A DNA stretch of 63,923 bases, filler included, from an uncultured Methanosarcinales archaeon (GTDB taxonomy: Archaea > Nanobdellota > Nanobdellia > Woesearchaeales > CAZXZL01), in the NCBI GenBank assembly GCA_964645415.1. It is 4 parts of 4 records of this genome, joined end to end, with 100 filler letters (N's around TTAATTAATTAA, not from the genome) between each part and the next. Parts side by side here need not be neighbours in the genome. Positions count along the whole stretch, not along the records: positions 1 to 19,769 come from CAZXZL010000014.1; positions 19,870 to 39,364 come from CAZXZL010000015.1; positions 39,465 to 58,707 come from CAZXZL010000016.1; positions 58,808 to 63,923 come from CAZXZL010000051.1. One strand, 5' to 3'. Positions 5,920-63,380 of the stretch are shown here, in pieces (position 1 is the stretch's first letter; each line of letters starts with the position of its first letter). The notes beneath the pieces are model-generated. The model made no database searches. It had not been told where the DNA came from and saw nothing but the letters and a program-made list of their open reading frames with translations. The position numbers were made by a program, and so were the translations under genes.

Positions 5920-5992
5920 AGATGAAAAGCGAAGATAAATTATCGAAGATGTATTAGCGAAGACACACTTCTTTAGCATAAATACGAATACT
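5920..5992. repeat. Mosaic intergenic element copy R1
   Basis: CGAAG at 5930, 5944 and 5958 (14-bp period), then ctttagcataaatacgaatac, a variant of 63346-63365. Confidence 0.65.
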
Positions 5993-6118
5993 AAATTAAA
6001 AAAAGAGATCATTAAGATTAAAAGAAAAGAAAATAAAATTCTATGAAAATAAACTAAAAATCATTAAAAATAGATAGTTTTAAAAAAACCCAATAATCTC
6101 CAACAAGTCGGTGAAAAA

Positions 6119-6661
6119 ATGATTTATAGAATAATATATATTTTTTTGATGGGAGTTATTATTAAAAGTATAAGTACGATACGTTTTATTTCAGAAGTTA
6201 AAGGTTATAAGTTTCTTAGTATGTTTTTAATTTCTGTTGATACAATACTTTTTATCTTGATATTTAATGATATATTGTCACAAGAACTTTCAGCACCTAT
6301 TATTGCATCATTAATTGCAGGATATTTAACAGGATATAATATTGGAACTTTTATTGAAGATAAAATTGCTCTCGGTAAAGTAACAGTGAATATAAAAATA
6401 AGAGAAAGTGATTCTGAAAAGTTAAAAGAGAAATTAAAAAAGAATGGATTTATCTTCGTAGAATCTGAATATAATTACTCACATAAAGGAAAAAAGAGAT
6501 GTATATATCAAGGAATTTTACTTAGAAAAGAATTACCAAAACTTAAGAAGGTTCTAAGTGAATTAGATGTTATTGCAACAGTACAAGAAGTTAAAGAAGT
6601 TTGTGGTAAAACAGTTATTCCTTCAAAGAAATATCTGAGATATCAAAACAGAAGTGATTAG
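6119..6661 (+). CDS. DUF2179/DUF5698 (YebE-like) membrane protein
   Basis: Three N-terminal TMs, STIRFI..VKG, GYLTGYNIGTFIEDKIALG, soluble C-terminal domain. Confidence 0.7.
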   Translation: MIYRIIYIFLMGVIIKSISTIRFISEVKGYKFLSMFLISVDTILFILIFNDILSQELSAPIIASLIAGYLTGYNIGTFIEDKIALGKVTVNIKIRESDSEKLKEKLKKNGFIFVESEYNYSHKGKKRCIYQGILLRKELPKLKKVLSELDVIATVQEVKEVCGKTVIPSKKYLRYQNRSD

Positions 6662-6676
6662 AAATGTTAGTGAAAA

Positions 6677-6705
6677 GTTTGATATTCGAACAATAAATTT
6701 ATATA
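6677..6705 (+). promoter_or_regulatory. Putative Lrp-type operator (GTTTGATATTCGAAC) plus TATA box of the peroxiredoxin gene
   Basis: 15-bp imperfect palindrome at 6677-6691, 6 nt upstream of TTTATATA at 6698-6705; 14/15 identical to the site upstream of rubrerythrin. Confidence 0.6.
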
Positions 6706-6725
6706 AATCAAAACATATTATTTGA

Positions 6726-7394
6726 ATGGTGAATAAAATGGAAAATAATATGCCACTCATCGGGGAAAAAATGCCAGAAATGGAAGTAAAAACTACAAAA
6801 GGAATGAAAAATTTACCAAAAGACTACAAAGGAAAATGGTATGTTTTATTTAGTCATCCAGGGGATTTTACACCTGTATGTACAACAGAATTTGTAGCTT
6901 TCCAAAAAAGGTATGACCAGTTTAGAGAATTAAATACAGAATTAATTGGTTTGAGTATTGATCAAGTATTCAGTCATATGAAATGGGTTGAATCTATTGA
7001 AGAACATTTTGATGAAGAAATTGAGTTCCCTATTATTGCAGACGACATGGGAAAAGTTTCAAAGAAATTAGGAATGATTCATCCTGCAAAAGGAACAAAC
7101 ACAGTAAGAGCAGTATTTATAGTTGATGATGAAGGAAAATTAAGAGCTACAATTTATTATCCACAAGAAGTTGGCAGAAATGTTGATGAAATACTGAGAA
7201 CTGTAAAAGCTTTACAGACAAGTGATGAGAAAAAAGTAGCAATGCCACATAATTGGCCAAAAAATGAATTATTAGATGATAAAGTTATAATTGAACCAGC
7301 ATCAAGTGATAAAGAAAAAGAAAAGAGATACAAATCAGTAAAAGATGGAGAAATTGAATGTAAAGATTGGTGGTTTTGTTATAAAGATCTTTAA
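6726..7394 (+). CDS. Peroxiredoxin (Prx6/TDXH archaeal type)
   Basis: [24 protein letters not shown] and C-terminal CKDWWFC. Confidence 0.95.
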
Positions 7395-7416
7395 TTGATT
7401 TTTATTTTTTATTTTT

Positions 7417-8673
7417 TTATTTTTTATTAAAATCTGATTCAAATAATGTCTTTTTTATAACTTCTACATCATCTTTTAGGTACTCAAAATCTTCTTTACT
7501 AACTAAAGAATCAGTTTTAGCTTCTATTTTTGAAAGTGATACAGTTAAATCTTTGACTGCTTCTTTATTACTCTCTGCAACATTATATGATTTTTTAATT
7601 TTAGAAAGACTTTCTTTTACATTTTGAACCATTACTTCAATTTTAGACTTAGCTTTTTCATTATCGATACTTAACTTTTCTACTCTTTTCTGAACTTTTT
7701 TCATTTTATCTAATTGATTAATAACATTTTCAAAACTTTTTATCCTTTTCATTAGTTTTATGAATTCAGAAATTTTATCTTTATTTAAGCTTGCTTGAGA
7801 CTCTAATTTTTCTAATTTACTATCTAAATTAAGTATTTTAGAATTTACATCATTAAATCTTTTATCTACGTTTTCTGGTTTAAAAGTATTTACTGTATAT
7901 TTAACTGTATTAAATTCGTCTTGAAGCTTATTAATCATCCTTTCTCTTCCCATAACTGTACTTCTTAACTCTCCAACTTTTTCATTAATTGTTTGTATTT
8001 GTTCATCAATATTTGTAGATTTTTCATTAATAATATCAATTTTACCACTTATTTTACCTTGTTCTACGTCTTGATCCTCAACTTGTTCAGAAATTTCTTT
8101 TATTTTTCTACTTAATTCTTTATTTGACATTACATCAAAGAAATCTTTATCATCTTCATCATCTTCACCCTCATCTTCGTCATCTTTATTAAATATTTTA
8201 GAAATAAAACCTTTTTTCTTTTCTTCTTGCTCAAGTTCTTTAAAATCATCTTGTGTAAAAACATTTTCATCTCTATCTATTCCTTCACCTTCTTCATCTC
8301 CTCCATCATCTTCATCTTCGTCATCATTGTTTTTCTCTTCTTTTTCCTTATTCTCTTCATCACTAATTTCTTTTTTATCCTCTTTCTTTTTTTTCTTTTC
8401 TTTATTATCAGATTTACTATCTTTTTTCTTTTTTGATTTTTCTTCTTTATCTTTACTTTTAGTTTCTTTATTTGATTTAGATTCTTTATTTTTATCTTTA
8501 TTTTGTTCAATAATTTTATTTAATATTTTAGTTGGTGATGCACCTCTATCTAATGCTTTTTGAAATGTATCAGCTTTTTGAGGATTAGAATCAATAATCT
8601 TTTTCAATATTTTTTCATCATCAAATCCGCCTTTACGGGCTTTTTCAATTGTTTTTTTTACAATTCCTGCCAT
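7417..8673 (-). CDS. Hypothetical protein: small helical N-domain, K/E/D-rich linker, long coiled coil
   Basis: 418-aa ORF with heptad pattern in the C-terminal ~230 aa. Confidence 0.75.
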   Translation of the reverse strand: MAGIVKKTIEKARKGGFDDEKILKKIIDSNPQKADTFQKALDRGASPTKILNKIIEQNKDKNKESKSNKETKSKDKEEKSKKKKDSKSDNKEKKKKKEDKKEISDEENKEKEEKNNDDEDEDDGGDEEGEGIDRDENVFTQDDFKELEQEEKKKGFISKIFNKDDEDEGEDDEDDKDFFDVMSNKELSRKIKEISEQVEDQDVEQGKISGKIDIINEKSTNIDEQIQTINEKVGELRSTVMGRERMINKLQDEFNTVKYTVNTFKPENVDKRFNDVNSKILNLDSKLEKLESQASLNKDKISEFIKLMKRIKSFENVINQLDKMKKVQKRVEKLSIDNEKAKSKIEVMVQNVKESLSKIKKSYNVAESNKEAVKDLTVSLSKIEAKTDSLVSKEDFEYLKDDVEVIKKTLFESDFNKK

Positions 8674-8678
8674 TTTTA

Positions 8679-10184
8679 TTATAATTCAAAATCTAAATCA
8701 GAAAGTTCAGAATCATCATCTTCTTCTTTTTCTTTTTTTGGTTTTTTATTTTTCTTTGAAATTGATTTACCAATATTTTTTAGTTTTTCAAGATCGTTTT
8801 TTATTTTTTTATTTTTATCTTCATTTTTCTTTTTCTCTTTACTATCTTTTTTATTTTTACTATCTTCATCATTGTTTTCTTTTTCATCCTCATCTTCATC
8901 ATCAATTTGAAATTCTAATTTACCTTTTAATTCATTTAAACCATCTTCAATATCTTTTAAATCTTCTCCTTTCTTTTCTTCTGATTTATCACTTTCTTTT
9001 TTCTTATCTGAGTTTTTATTTTTCTTCTTTTTATTTTCACTTTTTTTCTTTTCTTTTTTGGACTCTTCTTTTTCATCAGTGATCTTTTGTTTATCATTAC
9101 TTTCTTCTTTATCACTAACTTCTTTTAGTTCTTTCTTTCTTTTATTTACTGATTCTTTTAAGTCATCTAAATCTTTTTCTAAGTTAGAATTCTTTTCTTT
9201 GGTTTTTTCTTTGTTATTATCAGGTGTTTTTTCACTTTTATCTTCTTTGGTTTTTTCTTCTTTTTTACTATCGTTATCTTGACTTATACTATCTAATTTT
9301 TCTTTTATATTATCCTTTTCAATTTCATCTACATCTATGGTTGTTCCAAGTTTTTCACTTAATTTTTTAACCATCTCCTTTATTTCATTAATTTCTTCAT
9401 TTTCATTATTTTTATTAGCTGTTTTCTTATTTTTTTTGTTTGATTTTTTATTGTTTTTTTTGTTCTTATCTTTACTATCTTCTTTATTAGAATTATTTTC
9501 TTGGTTATCTTTTTCTTCACTTTCTTTCTTTTTCTCAGTAATCTCATCTAACTCTTCTCTTTTTAAATCAACTTTTTTAGTTAGATCTTTTAATTTTTCT
9601 TCAATTACTGATATTTCATTTTTTAATTTAATCTTTTTAGAATATAACTTTTCTTTTTTCATATCTTTTCTTTTACTAAGTAAATTCTCTAAATCACTCA
9701 TATCAGATTGAAGTTTTGATATAATTTCTTCTCTTTCTTTTAGGATTTCATCTCGCTTTTTTATCTCTTCTTTTAATATTTTTATTTTTTCATCTTTTTC
9801 TCTATCCTTTAGTTGAATATTTGATTGAGAAAAAGACCTCATTTTACTTTCATTAATAGGATAACTACAACGACGACAATAGTTTGATTCTTTATCTATA
9901 TTAGATTGACAATTAGGACATTCTATAAATGCATTTTGAACATTTTCTTTTTGATTGTTCATAGAAGGAATATTTTGTTCTCTATTTTTTTTAAATTCCT
10001 CTTTTGGACTATTATTACTATTTTTTATTTCATTACTTTTTGGAGAATTTTCTAAAAAGTGATTATAACTATCTATGAAAGACTTATAATCATACCCAGC
10101 TTCATAAATTCTTGCTATAAGAGAAGCGATAGGAAATTTATCTGCATTTTCTTCTAGATATTCTACAATCTCGTGCTCTATCAT
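8679..10184 (-). CDS. Zinc-ribbon and coiled-coil/low-complexity protein
   Basis: CPNC...CRRC ribbon and long K/E/D/N-rich region; paralog of 10265-10672. Confidence 0.75.
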   Translation of the reverse strand: MIEHEIVEYLEENADKFPIASLIARIYEAGYDYKSFIDSYNHFLENSPKSNEIKNSNNSPKEEFKKNREQNIPSMNNQKENVQNAFIECPNCQSNIDKESNYCRRCSYPINESKMRSFSQSNIQLKDREKDEKIKILKEEIKKRDEILKEREEIISKLQSDMSDLENLLSKRKDMKKEKLYSKKIKLKNEISVIEEKLKDLTKKVDLKREELDEITEKKKESEEKDNQENNSNKEDSKDKNKKNNKKSNKKNKKTANKNNENEEINEIKEMVKKLSEKLGTTIDVDEIEKDNIKEKLDSISQDNDSKKEEKTKEDKSEKTPDNNKEKTKEKNSNLEKDLDDLKESVNKRKKELKEVSDKEESNDKQKITDEKEESKKEKKKSENKKKKNKNSDKKKESDKSEEKKGEDLKDIEDGLNELKGKLEFQIDDEDEDEKENNDEDSKNKKDSKEKKKNEDKNKKIKNDLEKLKNIGKSISKKNKKPKKEKEEDDDSELSDLDFEL

Positions 10185-10264
10185 ACCTTATTTTAGAAAA
10201 AATTTTCTTAAAAAGTTTTGTTTTCATTACTGAAATGTTACATTAGTTTATTTTTTACCAGTAG

Positions 10265-10672
10265 TTAATTTTTAGAGATTTTACCTATGTTTTTCAACTT
10301 TTGAAGGTCCTTTTCAATGTTTTTTTTATTTTTTTTTATATTTTTCAACTTATTACCACAATAAGGACATAAATTATAGTTCCTTTTTACTTTATTATTA
10401 CAATTAGGACATTTTATAGAATTATTATTTCTATCATTTTTTATTTTTTTATTTAAATTATTTTTTAGTTTTTTTGATTTATTTTTGGTAGTATTTTTTT
10501 GTTTCTTTACTTTTATATTTTCTTTCTCTTTTTTTTGCTTTAAAAAATATTTATAACTTTCAATAAAAGAACTATAATCATATCCTGCTTCATAAATTCT
10601 CATAACAATAGAAGATAATGGATAATTATCAATATTTTTTTCTAGATATTCTACAATCTCTTTTTTAATCAT
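10265..10672 (-). CDS. Zinc-ribbon protein, short paralog of 8679-10184
   Basis: Shares EIVEYLE...RIYEAGYDY.SFI.SY..FL, a CPNC...CPYC ribbon and DL.KLKNIGK. Confidence 0.75.
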   Translation of the reverse strand: MIKKEIVEYLEKNIDNYPLSSIVMRIYEAGYDYSSFIESYKYFLKQKKEKENIKVKKQKNTTKNKSKKLKNNLNKKIKNDRNNNSIKCPNCNNKVKRNYNLCPYCGNKLKNIKKNKKNIEKDLQKLKNIGKISKN

Positions 10673-10755
10673 AAATAAATATTACAAATTTTTCTTAAAA
10701 AGTTTTGTATTTATAGAATAGTGGTTAAAATAAAAAAGAAAAAAAATGAGATGTT

Positions 10756-11343
10756 TTAGTAATAATTCTCATCTCTTGGTTTAAAATATTCTGTTGGATG
10801 TGAACAAGAAGGACATTCATCTATTGGTTTTTTTCCTTCATGGATATATCCACATTTTTGACAGACCCAATAAATTTTTTCATTTTTCTCAAAGAAAGTA
10901 TCATTTTCTATCTCTTCTAATAATGTTTTGTATCTTGATTCATGATAACTTTCTGCTTTTGCAATTGATCTTAATCTTTCTGCAATGTCTTCATAACCTT
11001 CCTCTTCAGCAATTTCTGCAAAATCAGGATACATTTCTGTATGTTCGTGATTTTCACCTTCAATAGCTGCTTTTAAATTTTCTTTTGTATTTCCATGAAT
11101 TGTTGGAGCAGAAGCATCAACATCAATCTCATCCCAATCTTCATCACTATCTTCTTTTAGTTGGTTAATTAATCTAAATAACCATTTTGCATGTTGTCTT
11201 TCATGATCAGCAGTTTCTAAAAAAATCTCACTGATTTGTGGATATCCTTCTTTTTTTGCAATACTAGCATAAATTGTATATCTGTTTCTTGCTTGGCTTT
11301 CACCAATAAAAGCTTTTGTTAAATTTTGTATTGTTTCTTCCAT
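10756..11343 (-). CDS. rbr: Rubrerythrin
   Basis: AFIGESQARNRY, ExxH diiron motifs, C-terminal CQKC..CPSC rubredoxin-like domain; GGTGAT SD before ATG at 11343. Confidence 0.95.
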   Translation of the reverse strand: MEETIQNLTKAFIGESQARNRYTIYASIAKKEGYPQISEIFLETADHERQHAKWLFRLINQLKEDSDEDWDEIDVDASAPTIHGNTKENLKAAIEGENHEHTEMYPDFAEIAEEEGYEDIAERLRSIAKAESYHESRYKTLLEEIENDTFFEKNEKIYWVCQKCGYIHEGKKPIDECPSCSHPTEYFKPRDENYY

Positions 11344-11822: not shown

Positions 11823-11866
11823 ATTTTAATAATCTCATAATTCTTAAAAAAATTATTTTTAAAAAA

Positions 11867-12012
11867 GTATTCGTGTTTAGCTAAAGGAAGTAGAAATCAA
11901 AATCATCTAAAGAAAAAAAGAAATAGAAGCTTATAAAAACAAAAACATAAATAAATAGAATTTAATTGGAACCAACGTGCTATACGAAGTATAGTGCCAT
12001 TCGTTAGAATGG
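11867..12012 (+). repeat. Mosaic intergenic element copy R2
   Basis: 11867-11886 is the exact reverse complement of 63346-63365; caaaatcatctaaa module; hairpins gtgctatac-gaa-gtatagtgc (11977-11997) and ccattc-gtta-gaatgg. Confidence 0.85.
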
Positions 12013-12037
12013 TAACAGCTTTATAAAATTTGAACAA

Positions 12038-17695: not shown

Positions 17696-19698
17696 TTTAA
17701 TCCTAATTTTTCTTGAAGGCTCTGAATATAAATTTCGGTCATTTTAAAACGACCTTCTTTTAGTTTATTATTAGCAAGATTATAATCTAACTCTAAATCA
17801 CTAGTATCTTGATTAGAATCTTCTTTAGATTTAATTTCTTCTTTAATAACTTTAAGTTGGGAAGTAAATTTATTATATTTTTCTAAATCTTCTTCACTTA
17901 ATTTATGAGGATTGTGTAAAGGGGGTCTAAAGTGGATGAACCATGGTTTACCATCATTATATTGAGGATTTTGAACCATAGCAACTCCAACACCCTGACG
18001 AGTAATACGTTTTGCATACATCCCACCGTACTTTTCTTCAGCTTTTTTAATATCATTCATATTTTTAGTGTTAAGTTGAACTTCTGTTAAAACATTTCCG
18101 CCAATCTCACCTTTAAAATCACTACTTACCTGACTAGCCATTAATAAACCAATACCCCACTTACGAAATTCTCTAGCTCCTCTAATTAAACCAGCATAAC
18201 CATCACCAGAACAAGAAGAATCTAAGAGACGATGCACCTCATCAAAAACACATAAAAGTTTAAGTTCAGGATCTTCTTCCCAATTTTTTTCAAATATTTT
18301 TTCAATAATTTTAGCAACTGCTTGATCATAATCTTGTATGTTAAGATTAGCAAGGTTAAAAACAGTAATTTCACCAGGATTTAAGTATTCTTCAAAATTG
18401 AGTTCAAAGTTAGCATCTTCTGGAGTAAAAATTAAACCTTTATAACTACGAGCATCTTCTTTTTTTAGATTGAATTTTGGATAATATTTGAAAATATTTT
18501 TATCTTTTAAAGAACTTAAAAAGCCAGTCCATTGACTAGTAGGGTCAAATACAACAACAGGAATCTTCTCATTTAATGCTTCTTCAACAATAATACTAGC
18601 ACTAACAGATTTACCACTACCTGTACTACCAGCAACAAGACCGTGGGTAGTTAAATCACGAGCAGCAAGATAAGCCTTATGCCTTGTACCAGCTAATTTA
18701 CCAACTTCAAGCATTGTTGTATTCATATTTTTATTTGGTAAATCTTTTAGATCAGGAGTAATATATCTTTGTTTTTGTTGTTTATATTTTTTATACTTAT
18801 TATAACCCTTAATAGTTACAATTAAAAGTGGAGAACCTATTAAAAAAATCAAAATTATTCTAAAATAAATAGTATCAAAAAAGCTTTGTGATAAAGTAAA
18901 AACAGAAGTAGACTGATAAACAGTTTCATTTACAATTAAATTTGTAACAAGATTATATCTTCCTAAATTAACCTCACTACCATCCTCTTCATTTAAAAAA
19001 GTCTCTCTATCAAGTGTCTTTTGTCTCATATCTCTAAAACTTGATGTTGCAGTAATGTTATAAGAATCTATATAGAAAACCTCATCAGATTCTAAATGTG
19101 TAGCAAGTAACTCTATTTTTACATTTTCAAAGTCAATAGGAATATAAAAATCAAAACTAAGGAAATAAATTAATTCATCACCTAAGAAGACTTCAGAAGA
19201 GTATATCTCATTTGATAATGATACAGAACGATCTCTTTCAAAAATTATTTCTAAGGAGATAGGTAGCTCAACAGAATCATGTTCTGTTTCGATGTAGATA
19301 CTACCATATAAGTTTTCTTCTTGTAAATCTTCACTTACATTAAATGTAACAGGAAGAAGATGCATACCAGAATTTTCAATTGTTAAATTTTCAGATTCAA
19401 ATTCAACAACAGATTCGAACTCTTCAGAGAAATTTAATCGATAATCAATTGAATGATTTTGATATTGTCTTAGTTCAACAGGTATTGTTACAGAGTGTCC
19501 TCTGATAATATTAAGACTACTTGAGATACTAGCATCAAACCCTTCACAATCCTCAGGACAACTATAATAATCTAAATTATCATAACAAATTCCGTCTCCA
19601 CACTCACCTTCAAAAGAATAAACTGAAATTGAAAAAAAGAATAATGTGAGAACTAAAAAAATAAATACAAAATTCCTTATAAATTTTATATTAACCAT
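17692..19698 (-). CDS. Membrane-anchored HerA/FtsK-superfamily (DUF87-like) ATPase with extracellular domain
   Basis: Signal peptide from MVNIKF (ATG 19698), CGDGIC..CPEDC motif, Ig-like region, TM, then HGLVAGSTGSGKS, VVFDP, VFDEVHRL, REFRKWGIGLLMASQ. Overlaps the start of the next gene. Confidence 0.88.
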   Translation of the reverse strand: MVNIKFIRNFVFIFLVLTLFFFSISVYSFEGECGDGICYDNLDYYSCPEDCEGFDASISSSLNIIRGHSVTIPVELRQYQNHSIDYRLNFSEEFESVVEFESENLTIENSGMHLLPVTFNVSEDLQEENLYGSIYIETEHDSVELPISLEIIFERDRSVSLSNEIYSSEVFLGDELIYFLSFDFYIPIDFENVKIELLATHLESDEVFYIDSYNITATSSFRDMRQKTLDRETFLNEEDGSEVNLGRYNLVTNLIVNETVYQSTSVFTLSQSFFDTIYFRIILIFLIGSPLLIVTIKGYNKYKKYKQQKQRYITPDLKDLPNKNMNTTMLEVGKLAGTRHKAYLAARDLTTHGLVAGSTGSGKSVSASIIVEEALNEKIPVVVFDPTSQWTGFLSSLKDKNIFKYYPKFNLKKEDARSYKGLIFTPEDANFELNFEEYLNPGEITVFNLANLNIQDYDQAVAKIIEKIFEKNWEEDPELKLLCVFDEVHRLLDSSCSGDGYAGLIRGAREFRKWGIGLLMASQVSSDFKGEIGGNVLTEVQLNTKNMNDIKKAEEKYGGMYAKRITRQGVGVAMVQNPQYNDGKPWFIHFRPPLHNPHKLSEEDLEKYNKFTSQLKVIKEEIKSKEDSNQDTSDLELDYNLANNKLKEGRFKMTEIYIQSLQEKLGLK

Positions 19699-19769
19699 TC
19701 TTATTAAGTACTTGTTTAAGTTCATCTATATATATTTCGGTCATCTTGAAACGACCTTCTTTTAATTTA
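19691..19769 (-). CDS. C-terminal fragment of a second, paralogous HerA-like ATPase (cut by gap)
   Basis: Manual translation KLKEGRFKMTEIYIDELKQVLNKNG* versus KLKEGRFKMTEIYIQSLQEKLGLK* of the downstream gene; overlaps that gene's ATG. Confidence 0.8.
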
Positions 19770-19869
19770 NNNNNNNNNNNNNNNNNNNNNNNNNNNNNNN
19801 NNNNNNNNNNNNNTTAATTAATTAANNNNNNNNNNNNNNNNNNNNNNNNNNNNNNNNNNNNNNNNNNNN
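19770..19869. other. Assembly gap with artificial TTAATTAATTAA spacer
   Basis: N-run, 12-mer, N-run, 100 nt total; same design at 39365-39464 and 58708-58807. Confidence 0.95.
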
Positions 19870-19925
19870 TGATAAAAGCTGAGATCAAATCATCTAAAAA
19901 CAAAAAAGAAGAAGTTTATAAAATC
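19870..19925 (+). repeat. Mosaic intergenic element copy R6 (at contig edge)
   Basis: tgataaaagctgagatcaaatcatctaaaaacaaaaaagaagaa is a near-exact reverse complement of 63195-63238. Confidence 0.85.
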
Positions 19926-31773: not shown

Positions 31774-32571
31774 ATGAGATCTTTAGAAAATTTAATTGGG
31801 GAAATATATGAAAATAAAAAAAGAGTAGAAGAAGAGATTGATATGTATTTTCTTAAATGTGAAGAGAAATTTAACGGTTATATAAATAATGATACACTAA
31901 CACATTTTATAAAAGAAAATTATCCTTACCAAAAATCTAAAAAGTTAAGTGAGAGTATAAAAAATTCTTATCAAATAGAAAATATTGAACTTGATGAAGA
32001 AGAATTAGAATCAGAGAGAAAAAGATTAGTAGGTATTTCTAAAGAATTATATGATGAATTTAAAGAAAAAGAAACTCCTAAAATAAGTAGATTAATTTCA
32101 ATTTTATCTAAAGTAGAAAAAAACTCAAAATTAAGGACTGGACCTGTTTTAATAAATAAAGGAGATTATATTCCTCCTGAAACACCTAATGAAATCCAAG
32201 GTGAATTTTCTAATGTAGATTATACATTAAAAGAGAATGATTTAGATCCAATTGAAAAAGCTATTCATTACCATTATCATTTTGTTAGGATTCATCCATT
32301 TAAAGATGGAAATGGAAGGTCTGCACGTTTACTTTCTAACTCATATTTGTTTTCAAATGATATTTTACCAAGTGTTATTGAAAGAGGAGAAAGAATGAAT
32401 TATGCAAGATTATTAGATAAAGCATGTAATTCTAGAAAAAAAACTTACGAACCTCTTATCAATTTAACTGAAGAAGAAGAAACATTATTTACTTATCTTG
32501 CATCAAAAATAAATAATCAATATTATAATTTTATGAGCGAAATAAAAGATAATAAGTGTTACAATGAATAA
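31774..32571 (+). CDS. Fic domain protein
   Basis: Canonical HPFKDGNGRSAR motif. Confidence 0.93.
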   Translation: MRSLENLIGEIYENKKRVEEEIDMYFLKCEEKFNGYINNDTLTHFIKENYPYQKSKKLSESIKNSYQIENIELDEEELESERKRLVGISKELYDEFKEKETPKISRLISILSKVEKNSKLRTGPVLINKGDYIPPETPNEIQGEFSNVDYTLKENDLDPIEKAIHYHYHFVRIHPFKDGNGRSARLLSNSYLFSNDILPSVIERGERMNYARLLDKACNSRKKTYEPLINLTEEEETLFTYLASKINNQYYNFMSEIKDNKCYNE

Positions 32572-39053: not shown

Positions 39054-39300
39054 TCAATTTTTATCAATTACTAAAAACAAAGTTTTTAGAATAATTAAAA
39101 GTGTAACTTTTAAAACCAAAAAAAAAGTAAATTTTTTTGAGTATAGAAAAGCTATGCTTTTCGTATAAATTGGTTAGGATTGTACCATACTTCGTATGGC
39201 ACGTTAGTTCCCATAACTTTCTACCTGATTTTATTTTACTTAATTTGATTTTTACTTTCTTTAGCTCAGCTTTTATTACAGTTTGTAATCTTCGATTACA
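39054..39300 (-). repeat. Mosaic intergenic element copy R3
   Basis: 39054-39092 identical to 54629-54667; hairpins ctaaaaac-aaa-gtttttag, gaaaagc-tat-gcttttc, gtaccatac-ttc-gtatggcac (39182-39202), tgtaatc-ttc-gattaca (39284-39300). Confidence 0.9.
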
Positions 39301-39464
39301 TACTCTTAAAATCTCTGATTTTATTCACTTTTAAATTTCTAATTTAACAGTTCTAAACTTTAGTNNNNNNNNNNNNNNNNNNNNNNNNNNNNNNNNNNNN
39401 NNNNNNNNTTAATTAATTAANNNNNNNNNNNNNNNNNNNNNNNNNNNNNNNNNNNNNNNNNNNN

Positions 39465-39535
39465 AGGGCAAAATCATCTAAGTAAAAGTAACTTAAAAGA
39501 ATGAAATAAAAAGGAATAGAATATTATGGGGACTT
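39465..39535 (+). repeat. Mosaic intergenic element copy R7 (degenerate, at contig edge)
   Basis: agggcaaaatcatctaa module and atagaatattatggggact tail. Confidence 0.6.
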
Positions 39536-39649: not shown

Positions 39650-40570
39650 ATGGAATTAAAAAAAATTGATAAAAATACTTTTAACTTATATCTAAATAAA
39701 CCAAAGGAGAGTCTATTAAATAGAATTTCATTTACCAGAATTTTCTCTGTCGTTTCTACTCTTGGAATATGGTACTTTAAAGAAGAAAAATGGACTAAAT
39801 ATGATATTAGAATGCTTTTAAAAAATGCTGATAAAAAATTAATTGAAGATGATATCAAAAGTGAGATATTTCATGTCTGTAGTGGGAAAAAAAATGATTT
39901 CCTTATTACAACAAATGGAAAAAATGTAGTTTTTTATCGAATTGACCCTGATTACTTAAAAATTATAAAAGAATTAGAAATTGATGTTTCACAAGTTTTA
40001 TCTTATGGTGGAAGGTTCAAAACGTTTGAATTTAGAGAAAAAAATAAAAAAAATATAATAAAAAAACTCTATTTTAATGATAAAACTGATTTGATTAACT
40101 TCTTTAAAAAATTAAAAAAAGAGCTTAAAAAAGAAGAATACTACTATTATAAAGGAATTTGGGCAAGAAAAGAGTCTATTATGAAAATAAGAAATGCTTA
40201 TATTGGTGTTTCAACAAACTTTAAAAACTTCAATAAAAAACAATTTAATTACTTAATTTTAATTCTATTTAAAGAAATGGGACATGAAGCAAGTGTTATA
40301 AAAGGTAATAATGGTGTTGATATTCAAGCTAATGTTGATGATAAAAAAGTAGGAATCATTACTTATAGTAAACCCTCAAAAATAGGAAAAACAGAAATTA
40401 ATAAAGCTGTTAAAATATCAAAATCCAATAAATTTAATTATGTGATAATTATTACTAAATCAACATTTAAACTTTTTTCAAAAAAATATTCAAAAGACAC
40501 TCCTGTGATTTTGTGGGATAATAAAGTACTTAATAAAAAACTAAAAAAACACTTTCTTAATTTCATGTAA
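39650..40570 (+). CDS. Protein with C-terminal Mrr-like restriction endonuclease domain (degenerate)
   Basis: F..LILILFKEMGH..GNNGVDIQA..IGKTEI..IITKSTF..ILWD; QxK motif replaced. Confidence 0.7.
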   Translation: MELKKIDKNTFNLYLNKPKESLLNRISFTRIFSVVSTLGIWYFKEEKWTKYDIRMLLKNADKKLIEDDIKSEIFHVCSGKKNDFLITTNGKNVVFYRIDPDYLKIIKELEIDVSQVLSYGGRFKTFEFREKNKKNIIKKLYFNDKTDLINFFKKLKKELKKEEYYYYKGIWARKESIMKIRNAYIGVSTNFKNFNKKQFNYLILILFKEMGHEASVIKGNNGVDIQANVDDKKVGIITYSKPSKIGKTEINKAVKISKSNKFNYVIIITKSTFKLFSKKYSKDTPVILWDNKVLNKKLKKHFLNFM

Positions 40571-47642: not shown

Positions 47643-47766
47643 CTTTTTTATCTCACTTTCTGCTTTCTAATATTCAACTTTACATATTCTATTATGTTAT
47701 TTTAATTACTTTATAATTAGTTTCTTCCTTTTAGTTAATTTAATTATCAATTTACCTTATTTATTG

Positions 47767-47980
<214 letters not shown>

Positions 47981-48100
47981 TCTAATTGCTTATTATAAAT
48001 CTAAATTCTTTTTGATATATTGTTAATTTTTTGATATAATATATATTCTATTTTTAGTAATTAAATTTGATTGTTTTTATTTGTATTCTTTAAATTTTTG

Positions 48101-48487
48101 TTTGTGTTCATGTGTTCAATCACTGTTCATTTGTGTTCATGTGTTCAATTACTGTTCATTTGTGTTCATGTGTTCAATCACTGTTCATTTGTGTTCATGT
48201 GTTGTTCAAAGTCCTTTATGTCTATTTTATGTGTGTTAGAGGCTTTCTCTCTTTTTGTGTTCATTGTTGTTCATTACTGTTCAAACATTATTGAACACTG
48301 TTTGAACGTTCATGAACAGTTCATGAACACTCTTGAACACTCTTGAACAGAAGATTTGTATTTGTTTTCTCATATTAGTTTTATTGTCGTTTTATGTAGG
48401 TTTTAGCTATTTTGTGATTATTTGAATATTTTGAACACTGTTCATGAACACCTTTGAACACTCTTGAACACTGTTCAAATTATGAAC
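48101..48487. repeat. Phased TGTTCA/TGAACA array including three 29-bp tandem units
   Basis: tttgtgttcatgtgttcaat(c/t)actgttca at 48101, 48130 and 48159; about 25 hexamers spaced 8-11 bp, with orientation flip near 48285. Confidence 0.92.
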
Positions 48488-54582: not shown

Positions 54583-54628
54583 ATTTATTTAATGTTAAAT
54601 ACTACAGTTTTTTATTTATTTTTATCCC

Positions 54629-54880
54629 TCAATTTTTATCAATTACTAAAAACAAAGTTTTTAGAATCTTTAAATCAAAGATTTAATAGAAATTGACTAG
54701 GATAGTACCATACGTTGTATGGCACGGTAGTTCCTATAAATTTCTATTTCTTTTTATTTTTGTTTTATTAGCTTCTTCTTTTTTGCTTTTGGATGATTTT
54801 GATCTCTATACTATCGAAGATGACTCTGCCCTACTATTTTTCGAAGAAGATAAGGCGAAGCTTTTTTCAAAGAAGATGAA
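54629..54880 (-). repeat. Mosaic intergenic element copy R4
   Basis: 39-bp block shared with R3; taaatc-aaa-gattta; gtaccatac-gtt-gtatggcac; atc-gaa-gat, ttttc-gaa-gaaga, aaggc-gaa-gcttt; gatgactctgccct module. Confidence 0.9.
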
Positions 54881-56993: not shown

Positions 56994-57050
56994 TATGCTA
57001 AAGATTATCTCTTCGTTAAAGTGCAGTGTGTAGGGCAAAATCCTCTTAAA
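56994..57050 (+). repeat. Mosaic intergenic element copy R8 (degenerate)
   Basis: tatgctaaag (cf. 5971-5980 reverse complement), cttcg, agggcaaaatcctct module. Confidence 0.5.
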
Positions 57051-57120: not shown

Positions 57121-58377
57121 ATGGACCCCGGCTTGTTTTATGTAACTATATTCAGTTTAATGGTACTAATAGGGATTTTATCAGAGTATCTTGCTGACAA
57201 AACAAAAATTCCAGATATTCTTTATTTAATGATATTTGGAATGATTTTGGGAGTAATTCCTTATAATGGTTCTTATTTAATCTCATTTCCAGATGCATTT
57301 TTATCTTCAATTGGTATACTTGCCTTAGCAATGATTGTTTTTGATTCCACATCAAGACTTCCATTAAAGAGTTTTGACACTTTAAGTGGAGAAGTTATGA
57401 AGTATATATTTTTATTTGTTATTTCAATTTTAGTCTTTTTAAGTATCTTTATTCATTTCTTATTTGGTTTTGAATTTTTTCATTTATCTCTCATTTTAAG
57501 TTCATTAGTCATTGGATCATCTCCTGATGCTGTTGAAGCAATGTTTAATTATCTCAAAGAAAAAAAAGTTCAGATGGACTTTTTAGAAATAGAATCTATC
57601 ATAAATAGTCCTTTAACTTTAATTCTTCCATTTATCTTTATTGATTTTGGACTTAGAGCAACAGATTTTTCAATGGAAGTATTACTCTCTGGTTATATCT
57701 CTCCTTTCTTTCAGGAAGTTGTTACCGGTATTGGTGCAGGTGTTGTAGTAGGGATAATTGTATTTAGAGGGATGAGAAGAAATTACTCAGAAAAGATTTC
57801 ACCTCTCTTACTTTTAGCTTCAGCTTCTTTATCATATGTTTTAGCTGAAAACTTAGGTGGAAATGGAGTACTTGCTGTTACAACATTAGGAATTTTCTTT
57901 GGAAACATGTATGTAAAAGAAAAAGAAACCCTTCATGAATTTTCTTCTTTTCTATCAAATTTATTAAAAATATTAATCTTTGTATTATTAGGTATTGTAA
58001 CAAGAGTTGATCAGATGTCATTAATAGATATCTTAAGACCAATAATATTATTTTTAGCATTTATTTTATTACGTTTCATATTAACATATTTACTGTATAA
58101 AAATAAACTAAGTTTTGAAAAAATACTATTTCTCACTTTTAATGCTCCAAAAGGAATTGCTACAGCTATTGCGGCATTTACATTATTTTCAATATTCGAT
58201 CAATACTCATTTCTTTTACCAACAGTTCTTATATTTGTATTGATTAGTATTATTGTTTCTGGAATATCAGTTTATGTTTTCAAAAGAATAGAATCTCGTA
58301 GAGAAAAGATGAGGGAACACTTAAATCATGGAAAAGGAAAAAAAATTTTAAGTGAAAATGAACCGAATTCAATTTAA
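57121..58377 (+). CDS. CPA1/NhaP-type cation:proton antiporter
   Basis: About 12 TMs, IPDIL, LEIESIINSP, GGNGVLAV, PKGIA. Confidence 0.9.
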   Translation: MDPGLFYVTIFSLMVLIGILSEYLADKTKIPDILYLMIFGMILGVIPYNGSYLISFPDAFLSSIGILALAMIVFDSTSRLPLKSFDTLSGEVMKYIFLFVISILVFLSIFIHFLFGFEFFHLSLILSSLVIGSSPDAVEAMFNYLKEKKVQMDFLEIESIINSPLTLILPFIFIDFGLRATDFSMEVLLSGYISPFFQEVVTGIGAGVVVGIIVFRGMRRNYSEKISPLLLLASASLSYVLAENLGGNGVLAVTTLGIFFGNMYVKEKETLHEFSSFLSNLLKILIFVLLGIVTRVDQMSLIDILRPIILFLAFILLRFILTYLLYKNKLSFEKILFLTFNAPKGIATAIAAFTLFSIFDQYSFLLPTVLIFVLISIIVSGISVYVFKRIESRREKMREHLNHGKGKKILSENEPNSI

Positions 58378-58402
58378 TTATTCAGAAATTATAGATAATT
58401 TA

Positions 58403-58476
58403 TGGGTCTGCTGGGATTTGAACCCAGGCAAAACGGTCCGAAGCCGTTTATGCTATCCAAACTACATCACAGACCC
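58403..58476 (-). tRNA. tRNA-Arg(TCG), no intron, CCA not encoded
   Basis: Cloverleaf: GGGTCTG/CAGACCC acceptor, AACGG-CTTCGGA-CCGTT anticodon arm, CTGGG-TTCAAAT-CCCAG T arm. Confidence 0.95.
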
Positions 58477-58807
58477 AAACTAATTTTTTAAAACCATACA
58501 TTATTTTAAATATTTCCAAAAAAAATTCAATATAACTTAATGAGGTTATCTAATGAAAATATTACATTATTTATAAAATAAACTAGTTACTATTAACACA
58601 TAATTACATTTTTTTTTATATTTTGAATAACTGTTACTATTAGTATATATTTTAGTTTCAAGTATATTTTATTTTATATGGGGAATCATTTTTATTTAGT
58701 TTTAATTNNNNNNNNNNNNNNNNNNNNNNNNNNNNNNNNNNNNNNNNNNNNTTAATTAATTAANNNNNNNNNNNNNNNNNNNNNNNNNNNNNNNNNNNNN
58801 NNNNNNN

Positions 58808-59412
58808 ATTTCATGTAAATAATCAATATCAACTAAAACATCACTTGGTACTTGAACATCACCCTGTTCAAATATTCCATAAACTTCAGTAGAAATGTTA
58901 CTTATCAATAAATCATCTCCTCTTCTCACACGATCAGAAAATAATGATCTAGAACCTTCATAAGTTAAAACAACACCATCATCCCCACTACCAACTAAAT
59001 TTCCATCTTCAAGACGAACACCAGTCCCATATAAAATATGATCATATAATCTTTCTACATCAGTTCCCATTACAGAAGTTCTAATTTTTGTACCTTTAAA
59101 TTCAAGTTCTTGATTAGATATATAACCCGGTATTGCAACATCAACCCCTAAAATTCTTTCAATATCATCTACATCATCAATACTAAAGGAAATAGATTCA
59201 TCAAGTGGACCCATCTGAGGAGTGACTCGAATTATATCTGTTCCAAAACCTAAAACTTGATCTTCAATAACATTTTCTAAACCATCACCCATAAGCATAA
59301 AAGAGTAAACTGCCATAATTGAAATAACAATTCCTAATAAAGTTAAAAATGACCTTAATTTATGCTCTTTTAAGTTTTTTAATGCAAGTCCGATTCCATC
59401 ACTAATTATCAT
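58808..59412 (-). CDS. MacB/FtsX-type ABC permease (3' end lost in gap)
   Basis: LKEHKLRSFLTLLGIVISI, G.D.I.V, extracellular core. Confidence 0.88.
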
Positions 59413-59413
59413 A

Positions 59414-60595
59414 TTAATACCTCATAGCATCTACTGGGTCTAATTTAACAGCCTTCCTTGCTGGGAATAAAGATGAAACAATTCCAAAAATGATTGAAAA
59501 ACCTAATAATCCTAAAGCATAATGTAATTCAAATACAAAAGTTAGTGACATTCCAAATTCATTAATTAATTGAATTCCACCATATGCAATTAAAGAACCA
59601 ATTCCAACACCAACTAAATAGCTAGCAATAGTCATTATAATAGTTTCTGATAAAAATAAATTAAATATATCTTCGTTTTTTGCACCCATTGATTTCATAA
59701 TACCTATATCTTTAGTTCTTTCATGGACAGATGTAAAAAGAGTATTTGATATTCCAATTGACCCAACTAAAAGTGAGATTAAAGCAATTGCTAAAACAGC
59801 ATAATTAACAGTATTTAAAATATCCCCTGCAATCTCTTGAATATTATCCATTGTAATAAATTCATAATCATCTCCTTTATAATCCTCAAAATCATACTCT
59901 AAATCAGCGATCATTTCATCAGTTGGTTCATCATGTGTTAAAAGCATTAACATATTTACTTCATCTGGGTTATCAAAAAAATCACTCATTGCATCTTGAG
60001 TCATCCAAAACATAGCATCATCTTCAGGATGACCTAATTCTTCAACAATACCAACAACACGATAATCTCTTCCAGAAATTTCTAAGATATCATCAATTTC
60101 AACAACTTCATCAAAAACCCCATCAGCAATTAAAGAACCAATTAAAACTTCACGATCAGTAGAAGGAGCTCTACCTTTATTAATTCTAAAACCAAAATCA
60201 CCACCATCATCCATATATCTATAAAAGACATCATCAGTCCCTGTAACATAACCTCTACCTTCCTCACCACCATAAGTTGCTGAAGCCATACTATAAATCA
60301 TGTATGTACAATCTCTGATTTCACTTCGCCTATAGAAAAAGTCACAATCCTCAATTTCAAATTCTCTCCTTAAAGCTGATCCCATAATATCATCACTTCC
60401 ACCAAGAACCATAACTGTATTTGTTCCAAAAGCACCTAACATATCATTCACAGCATGAGATAAACTTGAACCTAAAATAAGAAGAGAAGTAATTAAAATA
60501 AGTGATATCGAGACCCCTATTATATTTAAAACAGTACGTGCTTTATTTTGCCTAATATACTTTGAGGCAATTAAAAAATAATCAAGAGGTCTCAT
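59414..60595 (-). CDS. MacB/FtsX-type ABC permease
   Basis: ISLLVGSIGISNTL..SVHERTKDIGIMKSMGA, PARKAVKLDPVDAMR. Confidence 0.95.
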   Translation of the reverse strand: MRPLDYFLIASKYIRQNKARTVLNIIGVSISLILITSLLILGSSLSHAVNDMLGAFGTNTVMVLGGSDDIMGSALRREFEIEDCDFFYRRSEIRDCTYMIYSMASATYGGEEGRGYVTGTDDVFYRYMDDGGDFGFRINKGRAPSTDREVLIGSLIADGVFDEVVEIDDILEISGRDYRVVGIVEELGHPEDDAMFWMTQDAMSDFFDNPDEVNMLMLLTHDEPTDEMIADLEYDFEDYKGDDYEFITMDNIQEIAGDILNTVNYAVLAIALISLLVGSIGISNTLFTSVHERTKDIGIMKSMGAKNEDIFNLFLSETIIMTIASYLVGVGIGSLIAYGGIQLINEFGMSLTFVFELHYALGLLGFSIIFGIVSSLFPARKAVKLDPVDAMRY

Positions 60596-60618
60596 TTTTT
60601 ATCAACTCATAACTCCTA

Positions 60619-61926
60619 TTAACGATACTTACTTCTTCCAAAAAGATAATACAATATTGCTCCTAGAAAGAATGTTAAAGCAACAACACCAATCCAAACA
60701 TTCTTTTTAAGTTTATTATCTCTTTCAGATTGAATAACATCTATTAACATAAATAGCCAGAAGATAAACATAGTTAATAGAACAACTAAACTAAAAATCA
60801 TTCCAGACAATCCATTGTCTTCCACAGCAGGAACATCTACATTAAAAGAATTTGTAAAAGTTTCAGAATGTTTATCATTAAAAAAATCATTCCATTCAAC
60901 TTTATATTCTATTTCAACTTCTTCTTCATGAGGAATTATAGTAAAATCTGCAGTTTCATAATCGTTAGTTTCAACTTCCCCTAAAAATACAGTCCCACTA
61001 ACAATATCATAATCCGGAGATTCAGCTAATTCAACAGTTGTAAATTTGATATCTTCAGTTCCTTTATTGATTATATTTACACTGATATCAGACTCTTCAT
61101 TTTTTGTTAATTCTGCTCTTCTAATATGTCTTTCAACAATATTTACAACATCAACAAAGAAATTAAAAGAATATTCTTTTTCAAAAGCTTCTGTTCTATC
61201 CTCGTTTTTATAAGTTAATAAAATGTTTCCCTCATGATTTCCTGGAGGAGTTGAAGGATGAACTAAATAATCAAAAGAGATTTCTCTTTGTCTATTAGGA
61301 TCAAAGTTAAGAAATGACCTAACATTTGTTGAATCAATTACTGAAAAACCTTCAGGTAATTGGAAATAAGTTTCTACATCTCTTGCTTTTACAGTTCCAT
61401 CATTTTTCAAGTAAAAATTTAAGCTACCTCTCTCAGAAGGTAAAATCTCTTTTGGGTTTAAATTAAGTTGAGGGATATCAAAAATAATTTCTTTATTTTC
61501 AATCTCAACAGGAATATTTTTTGTAACTGGTCTATCTTCATCACTATAATATCTTACTCTCAAGTCATATTCTCCTGGAGGCACATCATCTTTAATTAAT
61601 ATTTTAAAATTAAAAACAGCAGCATAATCATCTTCTTGAAAAGGAGGAAGTGATCCAACTTCAATTTTACTATCTCGATATATTTCAAAAGGATAATCTT
61701 CTAAAACTTCAATATTTAAATCATCTATATAATCATCTCCTACATTTTCAACTTTCAATCTCAAATTAAGTAATCTATTTGGTGCCGCAGGATTAGGATC
61801 TTGAGACATTTTATTTATCCTTAAATCTCCAAAAGCACTTACAAAATTACTCAACATTAAAATTCCAAATAAAAAAAGTACCAATACTAAAAACTTATTT
61901 TTCTTCATTCTTTTCATTATAATCAC
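60619..61926 (-). CDS. COG1361-like S-layer/Ig-fold protein with C-terminal PLDc_N-like anchor
   Basis: Signal peptide, QDPNPAAP..L.VEN.G, repeated Ig modules, FWLFMLID..WIGVV..GAILYY. Confidence 0.85.
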   Translation of the reverse strand: MIIMKRMKKNKFLVLVLFLFGILMLSNFVSAFGDLRINKMSQDPNPAAPNRLLNLRLKVENVGDDYIDDLNIEVLEDYPFEIYRDSKIEVGSLPPFQEDDYAAVFNFKILIKDDVPPGEYDLRVRYYSDEDRPVTKNIPVEIENKEIIFDIPQLNLNPKEILPSERGSLNFYLKNDGTVKARDVETYFQLPEGFSVIDSTNVRSFLNFDPNRQREISFDYLVHPSTPPGNHEGNILLTYKNEDRTEAFEKEYSFNFFVDVVNIVERHIRRAELTKNEESDISVNIINKGTEDIKFTTVELAESPDYDIVSGTVFLGEVETNDYETADFTIIPHEEEVEIEYKVEWNDFFNDKHSETFTNSFNVDVPAVEDNGLSGMIFSLVVLLTMFIFWLFMLIDVIQSERDNKLKKNVWIGVVALTFFLGAILYYLFGRSKYR

Positions 61927-62374
61927 CTAAATATTTTAAAGAAAGATCTACTAAATCATTAATGACTTTAGTTTGATCTTTAAGAGAATTAATTTTTTTA
62001 CTAACTTTTTGATTTGATTTATACTTTTCTTTTTCTGACAAAGAAGTTAAAGATTCTACCATAGGATTTATAATCTCATTTTTTATCATTTTATATTGAT
62101 TTATTTTTAAATTAATTAAATCTAAGTTTACTTCAACATACTTCTTTTTAGAACCAGGTTTAGTGAAAACATTCAATGCAGGCATATATCCTTTTAAAGC
62201 TAAACTTATACTTGAAATACTATAACCTGTTCTTTTCGATAGTTCATCATAAGTTAAAGGTTTTTCTGATAAAATACATTCAACAAAAATGTCAGAAACA
62301 GATGAAGGTTTACCAAAATATTTTAAATTTTTCTCCATTGATTGTTTTAATTTTTTAATATCAGGATCAGTCAT
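61895..62374 (-). CDS. GbsR/MarR-like wHTH regulator
   Basis: PLTYDELSKRTGYSISSIS, KPGSKKKY; likely start MTDPD at 62374. Confidence 0.8.
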   Translation of the reverse strand: MTDPDIKKLKQSMEKNLKYFGKPSSVSDIFVECILSEKPLTYDELSKRTGYSISSISLALKGYMPALNVFTKPGSKKKYVEVNLDLINLKINQYKMIKNEIINPMVESLTSLSEKEKYKSNQKVSKKINSLKDQTKVINDLVDLSLKYLGDYNEKNEEK

Positions 62375-63074
62375 TTTTTGAATCCTCCGTAACTTTCCCA
62401 TCCATAATTTTAACTGTTCTTGTTCCAACATCAGTAAATCTTGTATCATGGGTAACTAAAATAATTGTTTTACCTTTCTCATGTAATTTATTTAGTTGTT
62501 CCATTACATTTTCACCTGTTTTTGTATCAAGATTACCAGTAGGTTCATCAGCTAAAATAATTTCAGGTTCATTAGAAATAGCTCTTGCCATTGCAACTCT
62601 TTGTTGTTGACCACCAGATAATTCATTTGGTTTATGATCTAATCTTTCACCTAAACCAAGCTCAGTTAAAATCTTTTTTGCTTTTCTCATTCTAACTTCT
62701 GGAGCAATATCGTGAAAAATCATAGGTAAAGTTACATTTTCAATAGCGGATAAATTTGAAATTAAATTAAATTGTTGAAATACAAACCCGATTACTTTAC
62801 CTCTTAATTGTGCAAGGCCAGATTCAGTCAATTTTGAGATATTTTTTCCTTTTAATAAAATCTCTCCTTCAGTTGGTGTATCTAAACAACCAATCATATT
62901 TACTAAAGTACTTTTTCCACTACCACTTGGACCAACAATAACAACAAATTCTCCTTTATGAACATCTAAATTAAAATCTTTTAAAACTTTTACAGTCACT
63001 TCACCCATTTGGTAATTTTTATAGACATGGTTAAGTTTAATGATTGATTCCTTTTCATTAGAGTTATTTGACAT
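62367..63074 (-). CDS. LolD/MacB-type ABC ATP-binding protein
   Basis: GPSGSGKST, GFVFQQFNL, LSGGQQQRVA, LADEPTGNLD, VTHD. Confidence 0.96.
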   Translation of the reverse strand: MSNNSNEKESIIKLNHVYKNYQMGEVTVKVLKDFNLDVHKGEFVVIVGPSGSGKSTLVNMIGCLDTPTEGEILLKGKNISKLTESGLAQLRGKVIGFVFQQFNLISNLSAIENVTLPMIFHDIAPEVRMRKAKKILTELGLGERLDHKPNELSGGQQQRVAMARAISNEPEIILADEPTGNLDTKTGENVMEQLNKLHEKGKTIILVTHDTRFTDVGTRTVKIMDGKVTEDSKND

Positions 63075-63183
63075 TAAGAAATAGAATGAATAAAATTATA
63101 TAAATGTTTTGTATTTTTAAAAAATATTAAAAATAGTAAATATTAGTTTTACTACTCATTGAACAATAAATTAAAAGCTATTG

Positions 63184-63380
63184 TTTTTATAAAATTCTTC
63201 TTTTTTGTTTTTAGATGATTTGCTCTCAGCTTTTATCAAAGTTGGCAAGGATGGTACCATACTTCGTATGGCACTTTAGTTTCCATAAATTTCTACCTAA
63301 TTTTATTTTACTCTATTTATTTTACTTTTTTTTATTTTCTAATTTCTTTAGCTAAACACGAATACAATCATCGAAGATGA
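63184..63380 (-). repeat. Mosaic intergenic element copy R5
   Basis: Module shared with 19870-19925; hairpin 63254-63274 with ~40-bp tail shared with R3; 63346-63365 shared with R2; tcatc-gaa-gatga at 63368-63380. Confidence 0.9.

Follow-up and report, generated by a model that had tools for sequence, protein, structure and literature searches.

The DNA analyzed here, termed the window, is a stretch of 63,923 nucleotides made up of four joined contigs of an uncultured archaeon of the order Woesearchaeales (GCA_964645415.1), whose 961 kb assembly comprises 79 contigs with ~25% GC and a marker completeness of 100. Its gene content, and the labels of two records that bear the core described below, likewise point to a DPANN archaeon, most likely a member of Woesearchaeales. 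Its proteins are archaeal housekeeping genes and its N44-linker-N44 stretches are the junctions of separate contigs; these artificial joins (19770..19869, 39365-39464, and 58708-58807, no strand) lie outside the element described below. Eight loci in the window carry parts of a mosaic repeat element rich in small hairpins. A sequence-only reading had proposed that these loci share blocks in varied order; this was borne out by self-comparison, which places them in a family with 107 loci across the genome.

In a common orientation, each locus runs from accessory modules through a motif K, an A-rich spacer (~60 nt), a hairpin H, and a linker to a hairpin E. The accessory modules are short and built on TTCG, CTACG, or CTAAAG. 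K is CAAAATCATCTAA, a non-palindromic motif preceded by GTAG; H has a stem of 9 bp, and E a stem of 7 bp with a GATA loop. The H-E linker spans ~9 nt and reads YATCCY-NN-Y or a variant thereof (YATCCT-NN-Y in this genome). After E, 40 of 79 cases continue with K or a further module; often K comes again, giving head-to-tail tandem units of 125-128 bp with a fixed left arm (K plus the A-rich spacer). In an alternative arrangement, the module next to K is M, a long inverted repeat; it is the only sub-module with an inverted repeat (~12 bp). Over half of the E stems (30/55) enclose a tail of 44-181 nt composed of small hairpins, and two-hairpin tails are interchangeable. Terminal inverted repeats are lacking in the H-E unit, which ends in the H stem on one side and the E hairpin on the other, and no GTAG-type tag was found at the foot of H, which is preceded by letters resembling ACTAAC or ACTACC. 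Three further ideas on the element were dropped: iteron-like 10.5-bp phasing (spacings are 13-14 and 24-25), a fixed TATA promoter within the A-rich spacer (conservation was not seen by eye), and an origin of K from a tRNA T-arm by decay (only 6 letters agree).

A complete internal element lies on the minus strand at 54626..54870, between uvrC and a GH57 gene. It contains S and D modules, K (54790-54801), H (54705-54725) with the loop AAC, and the E 3' arm (54630-54641); its 48-nt two-hairpin tail (54642-54689) is inverted and, by eye, is the inverted homologue of the tails of 44-49 nt. Two other minus-strand loci hold both H and E. At 39054..39364, accessory hairpins, H (39182-39202), an ATCCT linker, and the E 3' arm (39055-39066) are accompanied by a 100-nt multi-hairpin tail within the E stem, and the locus reaches the contig end. 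At 63180..63456, modules D, G, and B are followed by H (63254-63274), the linker, a tail-less E (3' arm plus loop, 63227-63238), and K (63212-63223). On the plus strand, 11861..12015 comprises left modules, K (11898-11909), the A-rich spacer, and two H variants (11977-11997 and 11994-12015) fused through the common 4-mer GTGC, and lacks E; 19870..19914 is a contig start that opens with the latter half of E (19870-19881), followed by K (19885-19896); and 39465..39530, also a contig start, carries K (39469-39480) and the A-rich spacer. The last two loci lack the core hairpins altogether: 5916..5991 (minus strand), between a helicase gene and a gene of unassigned product, holds only accessory left-type modules, i.e., three CGAAG motifs (5930, 5944, and 5958) and a GCTAAAG module, and is without H, E, or K, while 56994..57047 (plus strand) has accessory modules and a K variant (57036-57047) without H or E. 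The loci at 5920 and 56994 thus offer accessory modules only and fall under the coverage cut-off of our locus mask.

All seven hairpins quoted in the sequence-only reading were located in the window, namely the H core (39182-39202 and 63254-63274, minus strand) and the stems beginning tgtaatc (39284, minus strand), tcatc (63368), aaggc (54852), ctaaaaac (39071 and 54646), taaatc (54671), and gaaaagc (39146), the last five on the plus strand. The positions of the supposed C-G to T-A change in the core stem, 11981 and 11993, do read T and A. Copies were said to abut two contig breaks, and three such ends were found (19870, 39364, and 39465).

The family was delimited genome-wide with a mask of shared 13-mers and a coverage cut-off. 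This gave 108 loci, 107 of them extragenic; the remaining one, inside a Lys/Ser-rich gene, is false. The 107 loci cover 2.2% of the 961 kb, and total 21 kb of the 99 kb of intergenic DNA, about a fifth. Such a share for one repeat is unexpected in a streamlined DPANN genome. Hairpins were counted, repeated copies of one hairpin included, and compared with 30 dinucleotide shuffles and with an equal length of other intergenic DNA. C-NNN-G triloop hairpins with perfect stems of at least 6 bp number 90 in the 21 kb of elements, compared to 0.9 ± 1.1 in the shuffles (maximum 5) and 0.9 per equal length of other intergenic DNA, so that a density above composition-matched controls, as had been predicted, was confirmed; hairpins closed by G-NNN-C number 0. 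C-NNNN-G hairpins are likewise in excess (59, against 1.0 in the control), and CGAAG occurs at 5.8 per kb in elements versus 0.29 elsewhere. Three DNA runs labelled soda lake metagenome (one study, possibly the source) contain 84-91% of the words of one locus, and in the three well-covered runs read depth on the elements is ~7-20x higher.

The stems of the core covary. Among 70 copies of H (one a false match), pair 5 is CG in 45, TA in 24, and TG in 1; pair 8 is AT in 50 and TA in 19; and pair 9 is CG in 53 and TA in 9. Changes on both sides were seen in 6 of 16 pairs, three in H and three in E, and 0 of 500 shuffles matched the covariation score. Of 55 copies of E, 38 have arms that pair along their whole length, compared to a permutation mean of 12.6, and pairing persists across the tails of 44-181 nt (19/30 fully paired versus 13.7 when permuted within tail class; p = 0.003). 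The proposal that mismatches in the core stem are G-T on the GAA strand held in part: on the purine-loop strand there are 12 distinct G.T mismatches, which by eye amount to about two ancestral ones, but also 2 A.C and 5 others. H variants are linked weakly to the E 5' arm (p = 0.01), and neither to the E 3' arm (p = 0.22) nor to tail type (p = 0.92). As the E arms pair and yet the H variant shows no link with the 3' arm or tail, we conclude that the arms stay matched while neighboring modules reassort.

This reassortment also bears on whether the mosaic order is largely a mis-assembly of a simpler repeat. Between 60 and 74 of the 158 contig ends (~40-45%) bear an element, compared to 1.6% of internal 40-bp windows, and none of the Logan contigs listed spans a whole element, as mis-assembly would have it. 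Against this, H variants and E 5' arms at most ~40 nt apart occur in 24 combinations, complete internal loci with unique flanks are also mosaic, and pairing across tails is kept. We regard mis-assembly as a most improbable explanation.

Loop types and strandedness were used to weigh DNA against RNA as the folded form. The loops are GAA, AAA, AGA, GTA, GTTA, TTTA, GATA, and also GCA, with triloops nearly always C-G closed. GNA and GTTA loops are DNA mini-hairpin motifs, of which the RNA counterpart tested melts far lower, according to the part of the source consulted (PMC13037366). Purine-loop hairpins occur on both element strands, 63 on the K strand and 39 on the other. Because DNA mini-hairpin loop types are found on both strands, single-stranded DNA is favored over RNA as the folded form, but not proven. 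A structured non-coding RNA family or untranslated-region elements would account for the covariation, for the conserved G.T in H, seen as a wobble pair on the K strand in 65 of 70 copies, and for the strand difference in RNA folding (35 whole loci; median z -2.0 on the K strand versus -0.8 on the other, where the two DNA strands give -2.0 and -1.8). Yet elements face the downstream gene in the same orientation 41 times and in the opposite one 39 times, no Rfam family matches them, and transcripts of the tRNAs beside copies in related genomes would contain K where they end (3') and anti-K where they begin (5'). Together with the purine loops on both strands, these points make the structured-RNA role raised earlier quite unlikely.

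We next turn to related archaea, where a covariance-type model of the H-E core was run on 150 genomes. A first model gave weak matches in three of them, those in G072 being genuine. A second model matched 62 of the 150 at E<=0.1; of 17 inspected outside G072, nine were genuine and eight due to chance, weaker matches being left out of this inspection. Core carriers thus comprise 10 of the 150 genomes (the nine plus G072), together with two named DPANN records. Two genomes flagged as unpublished, G131 and G112, underlie none of the claims made here. A pattern scan placed the core in one Woesearchaeota and one Nanoarchaeota record; the E variant of the latter equals, letter for letter, the E at C43 of this genome, G.G mismatch included. 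Among E-pattern loci in genome contigs, 4 of 51 (three genomes) were genuine by context, whereas 0 of 8 viral matches had a paired stem. The exact H-core pattern had 0 matches in the genome-contig, viral, and metagenome collections, and whole-element BLAST over 40 relatives, none of them from the family to which this genome belongs, matched only the A-rich spacer. Conservation is one of structure: in the E stems of relatives, 112 of 120 cells are Watson-Crick across 20 distinct arm sets (permutation mean 85.5, maximum 100; 12 genomes). The compensatory changes in H and E of this genome and the E pairing in 12 others uphold the covariation that had been read into the core stem, and hairpin excess and covariation together support the description of a mosaic family shaped by single-strand structure.

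The collected set holds 28 modules from 12 other genomes, 20 further regions included. In 14 of the 28, the stretch that starts 0-4 nt past E is a repeat, 11-60 nt long, of what immediately precedes the module. Where copies were read, this duplicate derives from an end (3' or 5') of a tRNA or from the apparent 3' end of a protein gene, and the module is directed away from the intact gene. Examples are 17 nt of a tRNA-Arg end (L131) and 46 nt (L133) and 57 nt (L171) of apparent protein-gene ends; a partial tRNA repeat, not seen in this genome, stands at the far end of the module in L094, L121, L131, L137, and L141. Relatives have mostly 1-11 detected copies. G054 (L138, L172-L179) shows an apparent second, smaller expansion, with common flanks and several copies near contig ends. 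Compared to the relatives, the family in this genome is ~tenfold or more expanded, mosaic, away from tRNA ends, and mostly without local duplications: an element lies 47-139 bp from 7 of 35 tRNAs and none is at a tRNA end. In 7 of the 21 cases where a terminal E faces a convergent gene, 2-8 nt separate its end from the stop codon, and no duplicate is present (C22:14847, C32:1, C46:147, C4:9837, C4:39756, C38:8759, and C55:364).

The observations thus include a two-hairpin core that is conserved in structure, duplicated gene ends in relatives, and, in this genome, an expansion with reassortment of modules. In our judgment it is probably a selfish DNA insertion element without genes, one that belongs to Woesearchaeales-type archaea and has run away here. 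We prefer an insertion element over a repetitive extragenic palindromic (REP) sequence because in half of the relative copies the module is flanked by duplicates of 11-60 nt, gene ends in those read, which likewise supports the mobile-element alternative of the sequence-only reading; the high copy number appears lineage-specific, since relatives mostly have 1-11 copies with target duplications. As no mobilizing gene was found in the assembly, the mechanism is one that we infer. A folded single DNA strand would be the recognized form, and a putative enzyme, host-encoded or acting in trans, would insert the unit at staggered nicks. In this lineage, the duplicated flank may have been absorbed into the unit as its fixed left arm; with the flank part of the unit, copies would therefore have targeted one another by insertion or recombination. 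The modules could then have been shuffled and inverted by template switching or gene conversion, along with ectopic recombination.

Several findings weigh against this interpretation. Half of the relative modules (14/28) have no local duplicate; five of these lie, by eye, in a tRNA D-loop, two in L074, and seven in G054. In this genome, the sequence after E matches its own upstream arm in the top tenth in 7 of 49 cases, with a mean rank of 0.51 (chance level), and no convincing second flank copy was found at the 12 terminal flanks tested. No empty site was found among the joints listed for two loci in the three well-covered runs of one study. Copies are related, such that the statistics do not rest on independent copies, and whole-locus folding is only modestly better than in shuffles (median z ~-2). 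Template switching in palindromes can yield compensatory changes without selection.

The search for a mobilizing enzyme adds to these points. The assembly of this genome has no Y1 TnpA/RAYT (REP-associated tyrosine transposase; PF01797), TnpB, tyrosine recombinase (PF00589, XerA included), reverse transcriptase (RT), serine recombinase (resolvase), or Cas1 (PF01867), nor IS110 (PF01548) or DDE_Tnp_1 (PF01609), other DDE families being outside the profile search; no HUH-like or transposase-like paralog family was seen. The idea of an HUH, TnpA, or RAYT gene flanked by copies consequently failed, with neither a Y1 in the assembly nor an association with carriage: Y1 is found in 2 of 10 carrier relatives and 2 of 10 non-carriers, RT over the cut-off in 1 of 10 versus 3 of 10, and tyrosine recombinases in 9 of 10 versus 10 of 10, where non-carriers may include false negatives. 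Absence of an enzyme is no proof, because the assembly breaks at these repeats; in the case of the tyrosine recombinase, which 19 of 20 relatives tested have, the loss may be real or an assembly gap. A scan for HUH motifs gave nine candidates, none of them HUH by eye and one being Fic by Pfam.

The five D-loop modules (L044:340-450, L132, L134, L139, and L161) carry short inverted copies that could form a bulge-helix-bulge. Removal of 70 nt from L132 gave a tRNA-Ile by ARAGORN with the junction at position 20, the only D-loop case so confirmed. These cases are consistent with spread by way of an RNA intermediate in connection with tRNA splicing or ligation, with reverse transcription as the next step, and variable long duplications resemble those of target-primed insertion. 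On the other hand, no RT is present here and few carrier relatives have one, the other four D-loop cases are unconfirmed, and among the tRNAs listed here there are no introns and the nearest elements are those at 47-139 bp. We hence consider an RNA intermediate very unlikely. The route by which archaeal tRNA introns arrived has been called open, for Asgard archaea, in a recent preprint (10.64898/2026.10.13.758758); a module beside tRNA ends and within D-loops offers a concrete, testable route to them.

Comparison with known systems places the element close to several and within none. Like REP sequences and bacterial interspersed mosaic elements (BIMEs) of enterobacteria and pseudomonads, the Neisseria intergenic mosaic elements (NIMEs), and BOX of Streptococcus pneumoniae, it consists of palindromic modules outside genes, high in copy number and varied in order. 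A slight convergent-gap bias and a gyrase-bearing host are further REP/BIME likenesses, as far as the source was available (PMC3184786). Membership of that family, which had been suggested, is not supported, as no RAYT was found in the assembly and no GTAG-footed palindrome; in addition, the stems are AT-rich, the triloops C-G closed, the host archaeal, and the core of relatives accompanied by long gene-end duplications. The elements might nonetheless be domesticated BIME-like chromosomal sites, with cruciform or single-strand hairpins that serve gyrase, primase, or repair proteins and are maintained by selection. Gyrase A is present in this genome, and occupied gaps are in mild convergent excess (8/38 convergent, 22/198 co-directional, and 7/95 divergent). 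BIMEs bind gyrase, Pol I, and IHF (PMC3184786), and mini-hairpins feature in N4 promoters and in the priming signals G4 and ssiA (PMC13037366). The low copy numbers and target duplications of relatives speak against domesticated sites, as does the contig carrying Cdc6, which has no element, and we find this reading unlikely.

The insertion-element interpretation instead invites comparison with other mobile DNA. Elements are gene-less, short, and folded, with flanking direct repeats in relatives, as in miniature inverted-repeat transposable elements (MITEs), but the H-E unit lacks terminal inverted repeats, the duplication varies over 11-60 nt rather than being fixed, and no cognate transposase was found. 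Sub-terminal hairpins of single-stranded DNA recall the insertion sequences IS200/IS605. Those Y1 elements are not known to make target duplications, whereas relatives show long duplications in 14 of 28 modules, and TnpA (Y1) and TnpB were not found here, which speaks against the IS200/IS605 membership suggested previously. By leaving the gene intact along with a partial copy of a tRNA 5' or 3' end, the module resembles attL/attR. Archaeal integrative elements that target tRNAs (SSV1 and pNOB8 type) do the same and are linked to tRNA intron gain, as described in the portion of the source consulted (PMC3293823), although the present insert is 40-80 nt, has no integrase, and targets many tRNAs as well as protein-gene ends. 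Double-hairpin elements of fungal mitochondria are also two-hairpin, gene-less, putatively mobile, and intergenic, though GC-rich and organellar, and the accessible part of the source does not name a mobilizing enzyme (PMC10085805); this comparison concerns layout, and a sequence relation is not expected. CRISPR arrays and casposons differ in that the tandem units have no unique spacers and the assembly no Cas1. Target hairpins of diversity-generating retroelements were dropped as candidates, there being no RT and nothing on such hairpins in the part of PMC8632793 consulted. In summary, the element is a non-autonomous palindromic repeat; its layout is like that of BIME, NIME, or BOX and its duplications like those of a MITE or an att scar, yet it lacks the defining features of each.

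Such a core would be a small insertion element with long gene-end duplications and no recognizable transposase, integrase, or RT. It could further represent, though this is less likely than not, a new class of prokaryotic mobile DNA, i.e., a ~55-nt two-hairpin single-strand element inserted at gene ends by a host enzyme other than a transposase, with long duplication. If so, the class could carry captured gene ends, give rise to tRNA introns in D-loops, and perhaps copy coding tails from one gene to another, and this genome would show that host-enzyme insertion system in a runaway state; the 70 natural variants would define the stems and loops such an enzyme needs to read. The family is real and non-random, and is apparently undescribed in print: no published description of this two-hairpin family was found in the mostly open literature covered, supplements being outside that coverage.

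K has a counterpart in coding DNA. Four unrelated genes of this genome (C4:29782-30354, C12:1-1314, C19:8057-8911, and C42:1151-2140), which by eye encode L30, a ribosomal-stalk or similar protein, an L31e-like protein, and an FKBP-like protein, end in Lys/Ser-rich C-terminal tails whose DNA, with the K motif included, is 68-86% identical over 130-380 nt. KSKSSK in these tails is encoded by DNA identical to the K 17-mer, copies of this peptide use nearly the same codons (8/8), and K fits the tails better than all 40 synonymous recodings. The tails may have been copied between the four genes. That K is a captured gene end is suggestive only, because K beats the recodings but the A-rich spacer does not; the spacer was dropped as a DNA-level homologue of the coding tails, being not above controls. 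A separate 50-bp perfect tandem repeat with a terminal K motif extends across a scaffold gap (C6:31241-31730).

Other features of the window were noted in passing. A Fic-domain gene and an Mrr-type nuclease gene lie at 31774-32571 and 39650-40570, the latter starting ~120 bp past an element. One long intergenic region holds a (TTAC)n microsatellite spanning a scaffold gap (47760-47985) and a 29-bp tandem repeat of ~3.6 copies (48082-48197). A 42-nt direct repeat, 90% identical, stands near the starts of two neighboring genes for large secreted proteins (17726-17767 and 19728-19769). Finally, a 166-nt repeat (72%; 10053-10218 and 10541-10706) reflects paralogous N-termini of adjoining genes with zinc-ribbon-like motifs.

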